In this document: piece after piece, positions 2,303 through 2,605 of the stretch
Numbering within the stretch: position 1 is the first letter of the stretch
Layout: every line of letters begins with the position of its first letter
Program-made: the position numbers and the translations under genes
Notes under the pieces: model-generated
The model's database searches: none
What the model saw: only the letters and a program-made list of their open reading frames with translations
What the model was told of the DNA's origin: nothing
NCBI GenBank assembly: GCA_031548325.1
Contig: JAVBRE010000128.1
Span: 1-47,815, forward strand
From: Desulfovibrionaceae bacterium
GTDB lineage: Bacteria; Desulfobacterota; Desulfovibrionia; Desulfovibrionales; Desulfovibrionaceae
Direction: 5' to 3'
Length of the DNA: 47,815 nt

Positions 2303-2332
2303 TTGACAGCCCGGCGGATTCTTTTTTATCTC
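2303..2332 (+). promoter_or_regulatory. Possible promoter of the aro operon leader (TTGACA-N17/18-TTATCT/TATCTC)
   Basis: Perfect -35 TTGACA at 2303-2308, but only a weak -10 candidate at 2326-2332. Confidence 0.3.
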
Positions 2333-2382
2333 TGGCGGACGGCATTGCTGCCGTTGATTCGTTGATTTCGGAGTTTTTCATA

Positions 2383-2490
2383 ATGGCGTTTCCCCTTTCC
2401 CGCTCTTGGACCGCTTTTGAATCCGTGTATTATTACGGCTTCTTTTTTTACGGCTTTACCAAGACCTGCGGTGGGGTGCGCGCTGCGTAA
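2383..2490 (+). CDS. Candidate 35-aa leader peptide rich in aromatic codons (attenuation leader of the aro/phe/tyr operon)
   Basis: GGAG at 2370-2373, ATG 2383, TAA 2488-2490. Peptide MAFPLSRSWTAFESVYYYGFFFYGFTKTCGGVRAA has 11 aromatic residues of 35, with YYYGFFFYGF encoded at 2428-2457. Confidence 0.5.
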   Translation: MAFPLSRSWTAFESVYYYGFFFYGFTKTCGGVRAA

Positions 2491-2514
2491 CTGAGCAAAC
2501 AGAAACAGCAACCC

Positions 2515-2552
2515 GGGCCGCAGGCGACAACCGCCGGCGGCCCTGTTTTTTG
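2515..2552 (+). terminator. Intrinsic terminator inside the 5' leader (candidate attenuator)
   Basis: GGGCCGC (2515-2521) pairs with GCGGCCC (2537-2543), with an inner GGCG/CGCC pairing, followed by TGTTTTTTG. It lies 25 nt after the leader ORF stop and about 55 nt before the ATG at 2606. Confidence 0.6.
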
Positions 2553-2605
2553 CGTCTCCGGCGAACAAGCGCCGCCCGCGCCCACAGCAACGCGAGGATA
2601 CCGTT

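Follow-up and report, generated by a model that had tools for sequence, protein, structure and literature searches.

Leader-peptide attenuators of the trpL, pheL and hisL kind form a functional class, not a homology family. In the trpL-trp system of Escherichia coli, stalling of the ribosome on end-product codons releases an upstream RNA segment, which then sequesters the 5′ arm of the terminator. In pheL-pheA, and also in pheM-pheST, an open reading frame (ORF) with Phe codons lies ahead of the gene, chorismate mutase/prephenate dehydratase in the case of pheA, and the choice between an intrinsic terminator and an antiterminator is decided by the position of the ribosome (PMC11802643, PMC3082878). 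The aroR leader of Corynebacterium glutamicum is a ribosome-mediated attenuator at the entry to the common pathway, ahead of aroF (DAHP synthase); it has Phe and Tyr codons in the order Phe-Tyr-Phe, and is reported to respond to Phe, not Tyr (Neshat et al. 2014, summarised in PMC11802643). The element considered here resembles these systems. It precedes a five-gene operon for the synthesis of chorismate, Phe and Tyr in a 47.8-kb stretch of Desulfovibrionaceae DNA (contig JAVBRE010000128.1). We call the whole of this stretch the window, and coordinates are window positions on the plus strand unless stated. Judged from its sequence and from that of its relatives, the element is very probably a ribosome-mediated transcription attenuator of the trpL/pheL class.

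A regulatory element at such a locus has been listed before. Song et al. 2005 (PMC1173090; BMC Biol 3:13, Table 7) placed a ‘putative attenuator’, from Merino's web database, ahead of the aroA′-aroB′-pheA-aroF-tyrA-trp supraoperon of D. vulgaris. The entry is a table symbol; no leader peptide, aromatic run, analysis of conservation or covariation, or sensed amino acid is given. Nitratidesulfovibrio loci carry the leader described here, and the listed attenuator is almost certainly the same element. An initial annotation of this DNA, made from the sequence alone, had supposed the leader to be undescribed: that stands for the leader peptide, but not for the presence of an attenuator. In the literature searched on Desulfovibrio leader peptides and attenuation, nothing else relevant was found; Rodionov et al. 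2004 (PMC545781) has nothing on aromatic regulation, and the element is covered neither by Sun et al. 2013 (PMC3766115) nor by Leyn et al. 2016 (PMC5343134). Nor did the literature searched yield a described regulator of the archaeal-type route through ADH synthase and 3-dehydroquinate synthase II (DHQ synthase II), or a demonstration elsewhere of Tyr-responsive attenuation.

The short ORF of the window would encode the peptide MAFPLSRSWTAFESVYYYGFFFYGFTKTCGGVRAA, in which 11 of 35 residues are aromatic; eight of the ten codons at 2428-2457 specify Tyr or Phe. No other ten-codon segment in any of the six frames of the 47.8 kb has eight or more aromatics, and none of 200 dinucleotide-preserving shuffles produced one (segments with at least seven appeared in 1.5%), so the run is beyond chance. 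The amino acids enriched in the leader are products of the genes that follow it: pheA, tyrA and the common pathway. The region thus holds a short translatable ORF, whose translation is predicted, a cluster of end-product codons, an intrinsic terminator and an antiterminator that excludes it, all of which mark the class. On re-reading the sequence, the positions given in the initial annotation for the TTGACA and GGAG motifs, the start and stop codons, the hairpin and the complementary segments proved correct throughout, as did its counts of aromatic codons.

The relatives lend strong support to this reading. Loci were sampled in two ways: 78 through relatives of the ADH synthase, one genome per species, and 80 from metagenomes through TyrA. 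A four-sequence TyrA alignment was the productive query in the metagenome scan; the window's TyrA alone found none. The nearest relatives of the ADH synthase are in Desulfovibrionaceae metagenome-assembled genomes (95% and 92% identity) and in Desulfovibrio cuneatus (82%). The upstream scan of orthologs that the initial annotation had proposed found the same layout in about 40 Desulfovibrionales loci (33 species-representative genomes plus metagenome contigs): a TTGACA promoter, a short ORF with a Phe/Tyr(/Trp) run, and a strong hairpin with a U-tract. The genera include Desulfovibrio, Nitratidesulfovibrio, Mailhella, Desulfocurvus, Pseudodesulfovibrio and Desulfovermiculus, and the operon consists of the ADH synthase and DHQ synthase II genes, pheA, aroA and tyrA, sometimes with trp genes.

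Among Desulfovibrionales loci whose upstream sequence is long enough, essentially all have an ATG-initiated short ORF of 26-40 codons. Its aromatic run is conserved across the order in composition, not in the sequence of residues: FFYGFFYYGF, NYYFWYFFSY, FSWFFFAYYF and FFGFFWFYFWF are examples. Phe and Tyr both occur in all 27 leaders analysed, and Trp in 19 of them; in five of the peptides S-W stands 1-10 codons ahead of the run. The N-terminal region is variable and unalignable. An A-rich stretch with TTGAC(A) lies 36-82 nucleotides (nt) upstream of the ATG in 24 of 27 loci, with TAnnnn hexamers (TATAGC, TATAGA, TAGGTA and others) at the distance of a −10 box. A Shine-Dalgarno-like motif precedes the short ORF in 17 of 27 relatives, and several of the others look leaderless. 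In five loci the TTGACA is 36-38 nt before the ATG and such a motif is missing; the peptide there may be made from leaderless or near-leaderless mRNA. The hairpin with its U-tract follows the stop codon by 21-35 nt in the relatives, with folding energies of −15 to −31 kcal/mol.

In the loci sampled, archaea, Aquificota and most organisms outside the Desulfovibrionales have no such leader ahead of this gene. In Oleidesulfovibrio, Halodesulfovibrio and their relatives (five loci) it at first appeared to be missing as well, yet it is found about 1 kb further upstream, because the operon there is headed by two tandem ADH-synthase paralogs, an additional copy being its first gene. Leader and terminator precede that first copy; the position of the leader is thus tied to the 5′ end of the operon and not to the ADH-synthase gene. 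Two copies of this gene are also seen in L097 and L117, and in L117 a match to the terminator motif lies between them. About 240-60 nt upstream of the ADH-synthase gene of a Desulfobacteraceae metagenome-assembled genome lie, in another arrangement, a short ORF whose run is FYFNFRYFF and two candidate hairpins with T-runs. This could be an aromatic leader outside the Desulfovibrionales, either independent or distantly related.

The hairpin after the short ORF had been called a rho-independent terminator within the 5′ leader, and both folding and comparison uphold that. In the window (2515-2543: GGGCCGC-A-GGCG / acaac / CGCC-G-GCGGCCC) its stem comprises 11 pairs and a single A.G mismatch, with a folding energy of −24.9 kcal/mol, and TGTTTTTTG follows on its 3′ side; the adjoining tract is also given as UGUUUUUUG. 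In A1, the alignment of 33 sequences on which the counts of helix pairing and covariation are based, the helix is 91.5% paired, and seven pairs have changed on both sides. The sequence motif of the terminator occurs once in the window, against 0.00 expected; a simple consensus scan overlooked the hairpin on account of its internal mismatch and the rules for loops. Conservation of the 5′ arm extends to its sequence (GGCCGCAGGC or GGCCGCGGGC), which is unusual for terminators and points to a second constraint. The alignment shows what it is: the arm has to match the 3′ end of the short ORF as its complement. Five gut-metagenome Desulfovibrio contigs contain the terminator motif once more, on the opposite strand and several kb past the operon (at about 10.8-12.7 kb in L100, L102, L104 and L105, and about 14.5 kb in L118).

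Part of this complementarity, CCTGCGG at 2465-2471 with CCGCAGG at 2518-2524, had been taken for an antiterminator in the initial annotation. The pairing holds, but its extent was understated: an outer helix (2465-2472/2517-2524) is joined by an inner helix (2474-2479/2508-2514), and the two enclose the stop codon. The duplex of the 5′ strand with the terminator 5′ arm has −16.4 kcal/mol in the window; locus by locus, a segment of the short ORF forms a duplex of 8-12 bp with that arm, with a median of −18 kcal/mol. The median distance is 5 nt from the run's last aromatic codon to the start of the pairing segment, and 12 nt from the end of that segment to the stop codon. In A1, 88.5% of the cells of the antiterminator helix are paired, against 39-46% with the partner slid by 1-3 columns; covariation is 0.259, against 0.195 in shuffles that ignore the relatedness of the sequences (0 of 500 as high).

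Single pairs tell the same story. Pair 55:128 of the alignment (U2467-A2522 in the window) is UA in 18 sequences, CG in 8, UG in 4 and GC in 1, and its switches are interleaved among lineages of differing relatedness. Pair 57:126 (CG 17, UG 11, UA 5) changes along with the 3′ arm of the terminator. A2522 is mismatched in the terminator and paired to U2467 in the antiterminator; its covariation therefore speaks for the antiterminator alone, and is no by-product of the terminator.

In 32 of the 33 loci, the minimum free energy (MFE) structure of the nascent RNA, folded as the stretch from the antiterminator arm to the terminator loop that is exposed once the polymerase has reached the U-tract, holds the antiterminator. 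Almost always this is a two-helix stem-loop around the stop codon; in the window its energy is −26.8 kcal/mol. When a ribosome is stalled with its A site at 2428-2449 in the window fold, the antiterminator forms (−26.6 to −26.8 kcal/mol); when the ribosome is at the stop codon, constrained folding leaves only the terminator able to form. The mutually exclusive structures that the initial annotation had called for are thus found. The thermodynamic optimum of the full-length leader is the terminator, so the choice between the two must be kinetic and co-transcriptional. In the E. coli trp leader, too, the full-length optimum is the terminator.

These elements suggest the following course of events. 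Transcription would start about 30 nt past TTGACA, near 2339 as placed from the spacing of the −35 and −10 boxes, and the 35 codons would be translated while the polymerase proceeds. With Phe- and Tyr-tRNA well charged (and probably Trp-tRNA, through the putative regulatory codon W9), the ribosome would clear the aromatic codons, enter 2465-2479 and stop at TAA 2488. With a ribosome on 2465-2479, pairing with 2508-2524 would be prevented, the terminator at 2515-2543 would form, and transcription would end near 2550 with a transcript of about 210 nt. With low charging, the ribosome would stall within 2428-2457; 2465-2479 would be left free, and the antiterminator would form once the terminator 5′ arm is made, sequester that arm and permit read-through into the operon. 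The place of the stop codon, inside the antiterminator stem-loop, means that a ribosome finishing the peptide would block antitermination and one stalled at the aromatic codons would permit it. The predictions that attenuation makes at the level of sequence (conserved ORF and terminator, covarying antiterminator, ribosome geometry) have held.

Features of the leader region and the operon in the window
Feature	Position	Strand	Basis or remark
A-tract, then −35 box TTGACA	2294-2299; 2303-2308	+	Sequence; putative promoter
Candidate −10 box TATCTC	2327-2332	+	18 nt past the −35 box; placed by spacing
Stem-loop near the transcript 5′ end, GACGGCA-uugc-UGCCGUU, 7-bp stem	2338-2355	+	MFE and centroid folds
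Shine-Dalgarno GGAG	2370-2373	+	9 nt ahead of ATG 2383
Leader short ORF, 35 codons + TAA (2488-2490), MAFPLSRSWTAFESVYYYGFFFYGFTKTCGGVRAA	2383-2490	+	Sequence, ORF list, relatives
Single Trp codon W9	2407-2409	+	‘SW’ context kept in closest relatives
Small hairpin CCGUG-uauuau-UACGG (2423-2438), then CUUCUUUUUUU	2423-2449	+	Candidate RNA-polymerase pause signal
Regulatory codon run YYYGFFFYGF, 4 Tyr + 4 Phe (putative)	2428-2457	+	Sequence
Antiterminator 5′ strand, CCUGCGGU (2465-2472) + GGGGUG (2474-2479)	2465-2479	+	Inside short ORF, codons T28-R33
Antiterminator 3′ strand, CA.ACCC (2508-2514) + GCCGCAGG (2517-2524)	2508-2524	+	GCCGCAGG is most of the terminator 5′ arm
Intrinsic terminator, stem 2515-2526/2532-2543, loop ACAAC, U-tract UGUUUUUU	2515-2551	+	Folding, relatives
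ADH synthase	2606-3406	+	NCBIfam match
3-Dehydroquinate synthase II (DHQ synthase II)	3406-4395	+	NCBIfam match
Chorismate mutase/prephenate dehydratase (pheA)	4397-5599	+	NCBIfam match
EPSP synthase (aroA)	5596-7002	+	NCBIfam match
Prephenate dehydrogenase (tyrA)	6999-7826	+	NCBIfam match

Several observations weigh against a leader-peptide attenuator, or at least against a simple copy of the E. coli scheme. The shuffle controls for covariation are uncorrected for the kinship of the sequences. The −10 box appears weak by E. coli standards, and a promoter scan with the E. coli consensus did not call it. If the ribosome stalls at F25 (2455), the final aromatic codon, it would itself cover part of the antiterminator arm; antitermination must then stem from stalls earlier in the run. 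Leader Trp codons do not track trp genes in the operon: W is found in most leaders, with trp genes in L083, L097 and L079, and without them in L091, L093, L098-L106, L110 and L122. The window has a predicted 1:2 anti-antiterminator (2400-2410, CCGC/UCUUGG, with 2458-2471, CCAAGA/GCGG; −47.3 against −44.9 kcal/mol), yet it is the preferred (MFE) fold in only 8 of 27 loci; the four-segment scheme of E. coli is therefore not fully reproduced, and no such helix is claimed for the family. Finally, the small hairpin at the head of the aromatic run, which the terminator scan flagged as terminator-like, is not significant in the window taken alone, as 9 of 40 codon-permuted controls were as stable.

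For the family as a whole this hairpin fares better. A hairpin followed by a U-rich tract of Phe/Tyr codons lies within the short ORF in 23 of 27 loci, with a mean of −6.5 kcal/mol against −4.0 ± 0.55 in the codon-permuted controls (0 of 40 as stable). The hairpin at 2423-2438 with its U-tract could be a candidate pause site, letting the ribosome catch up with the polymerase.

One may accept the switch and doubt the ribosome. In such an account the choice of helix would be set by a TRAP- or PyrR-like RNA-binding protein, by uncharged tRNA (a T-box) or by a small-molecule riboswitch, the aromatic ORF being incidental. The two alternative helices are the best-supported parts of the whole and would serve any mechanism of attenuation, and the 1:2 element typical of leader-peptide attenuators is the one that is not conserved. 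Against this, Rfam found none of the gamma-proteobacterial leader families (Phe, Trp, His, Leu, Thr) and no T-box in 1500-3200 of the window at E ≤ 10, and no leader family in the whole window at the gathering score. The alignment of relatives contains no other conserved structured domain between promoter and terminator, the N-terminal region being unalignable. Every locus retains an in-frame, ATG-initiated ORF that contains a Phe/Tyr run, although nucleotides and peptide have both diverged. Above all, the stop codon is always 5-25 nt past the antiterminator arm and within its stem-loop, a placement that only sensing by the ribosome explains. A switch of another kind is accordingly very unlikely. 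One Rfam match on the hairpin, to mir-1538, is due to chance (25 bits against a gathering score of 78).

A second account keeps the ribosome and moves the point of action: to translation or mRNA stability, through coupling or re-initiation, or to Rho-dependent polarity where the ribosome is released, with intrinsic termination secondary. A boost to downstream translation has been put forward as a role of leader ORFs (PMC4833913), and the distance from terminator to first gene is variable (54 nt here, about 225 nt in Nitratidesulfovibrio). Translational coupling is nevertheless unlikely, because the first gene has its own Shine-Dalgarno sequence, GAGGA at 2594-2598, 50 nt past the U-tract and so too far away; and essentially every locus has an intrinsic terminator of canonical form, with a GC-rich stem of 11 bp and 6-8 U immediately after it. 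This account, too, is very unlikely, slightly more so than the one before it.

The least likely of the three, that the short ORF makes a functional small hydrophobic or aromatic protein, with the hairpin as its terminator or as a partial terminator that sets stoichiometry and no sensing of amino acids, can appeal to the conserved position, to database entries that name the peptide a hypothetical protein (UniRef100_B8DM53) and to an apparently conserved C-terminal (A/S/T)-C-G, but the Cys/Arg/Gly changes of that motif go in step with the partner base in the terminator arm and so reflect a constraint on RNA, not on peptide; the aromatic run keeps its composition and not its order; the N-terminus cannot be aligned; three representative leader peptides had no NCBIfam or Pfam match at E ≤ 10; and the conserved complementarity between the end of the ORF and the terminator 5′ arm would be left unexplained.

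If ribosome-mediated attenuation is accepted, a further question is what the ribosome senses. A tentative reading, which we regard as possible though on balance doubtful, joins the features into a multivalent attenuator for Tyr and Phe (through the run) and Trp (through the conserved upstream W). It would work without a 1:2 anti-antiterminator, with its stop codon in a two-helix antiterminator, and with the hairpin and U-tract in the run serving as an early terminator, or as a pause that the ribosome releases, so that transcription and translation stay in step. If this is true, it would be the first attenuator shown to respond to tyrosine, with an architecture unlike the four-segment scheme of E. 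coli. One expectation, that Trp codons are limited to leaders with trp genes after tyrA, was refuted by the comparison of loci and supports neither side; Trp codons irrespective of trp genes fit control of the common pathway, but do not discriminate. In four loci (L079 and L080 of Nitratidesulfovibrio, at 10001-20105, and L083 and L097) the leader heads a supraoperon that runs from tyrA into trpE, trpG, trpD and trpC.

The surroundings of the leader were also surveyed. The five genes of the operon (2606-7826) are tightly packed, with starts and stops overlapping or abutting; rpoZ and dnaJ follow on the 3′ side, and the operon of the window has no trp genes. The stem-loop near the predicted 5′ end of the transcript may be a stabiliser; seven relatives have, by eye, comparable hairpins at the same place. 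On the minus strand, ORFs at 2326-3063, 2448-2585 and 2456-3094 cross the region, antisense to the ADH-synthase gene in this GC-rich genome. Upstream lies an RTX remnant on the plus strand (2042-2254), the C-terminal 70 residues of a protein with calcium-binding repeats (HemolysinCabind, PF00353, E 7e-8); it is start-less, with a stop codon just before it, and has its own terminator-like hairpin at 2241-2253. The idea that 2515-2543 is the terminator of the upstream gene was rejected, since the remnant ends at 2254 with that hairpin and the leader stays by the operon despite differing upstream genes. An AT-rich stretch at 1940-2040, in an otherwise GC-rich window, contains a near-consensus minus-strand promoter (GTGACA-18-TATAAT, 2006 to 1977) that faces rpsD (S4 domains; ORF 1072-1893, minus strand). 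As the stretch adjoins the truncated remnant, it may mark an old rearrangement. A 94-nt tRNA-Cys reported by ARAGORN at 8580-8673 on the minus strand, antisense within dnaJ (8185-9312), is probably a false positive in view of its length and location.

What does such a leader add? It is an order-wide example of a well-known type of device, partly anticipated by the database prediction of 2005; and as the principle of attenuation is textbook knowledge, what it adds lies mostly in annotation and physiology, and less in concept. A concrete regulatory mechanism can now be proposed for aromatic amino-acid synthesis in the Desulfovibrionales, sulfate reducers that include gut Desulfovibrio, Mailhella and Bilophila-like organisms. 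Genes of archaeal type would here be under a typically bacterial control device, one that is not found before the same gene in archaea or Aquificota. The mixture of codons for Tyr, Phe and, in most cases, Trp suggests that several amino acids are sensed, as would suit a common pathway with two branches. From the alignment and the two alternative structures a family could be built that would mend the annotations as hypothetical protein, and A2522, by its different state in the two structures, offers a clean handle for mutation. Of modest interest beyond this are the mixed leader, a stop codon enclosed by the two helices of the antiterminator, a hairpin within the ORF that may cause pausing, and attenuation acting on archaeal-type genes.

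Set beside the systems described at the outset, the leader also shows differences. In pheL the regulatory codons are for Phe alone, whereas here Tyr and Phe codons (and Trp) are mixed; pheL controls pheA, whereas the operon here has five genes, among them tyrA and those for steps one and two of the common pathway; and the stop codon inside the antiterminator, the missing conserved 1:2 hairpin and the lack of sequence or structure homology in Rfam set the two further apart. In comparison with aroR, as far as descriptions allow, the aromatic codons number eight in ten (four Tyr and four Phe) plus a Trp codon, against three; the host belongs to another phylum; and the enzymes at the entry to the pathway, ADH synthase with DHQ synthase II as against DAHP synthase, are unrelated. 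With trpL there is a likeness in the genes controlled, in that the leader of Nitratidesulfovibrio and some relatives also heads trpEGDC... genes; in the window these are absent from the operon, and the regulatory codons are mainly those for Tyr and Phe. Where trpL has its 1:2 hairpin, the Desulfovibrionales leaders have no conserved counterpart, and the small hairpin and U-tract within the run may take over the role of the pause.

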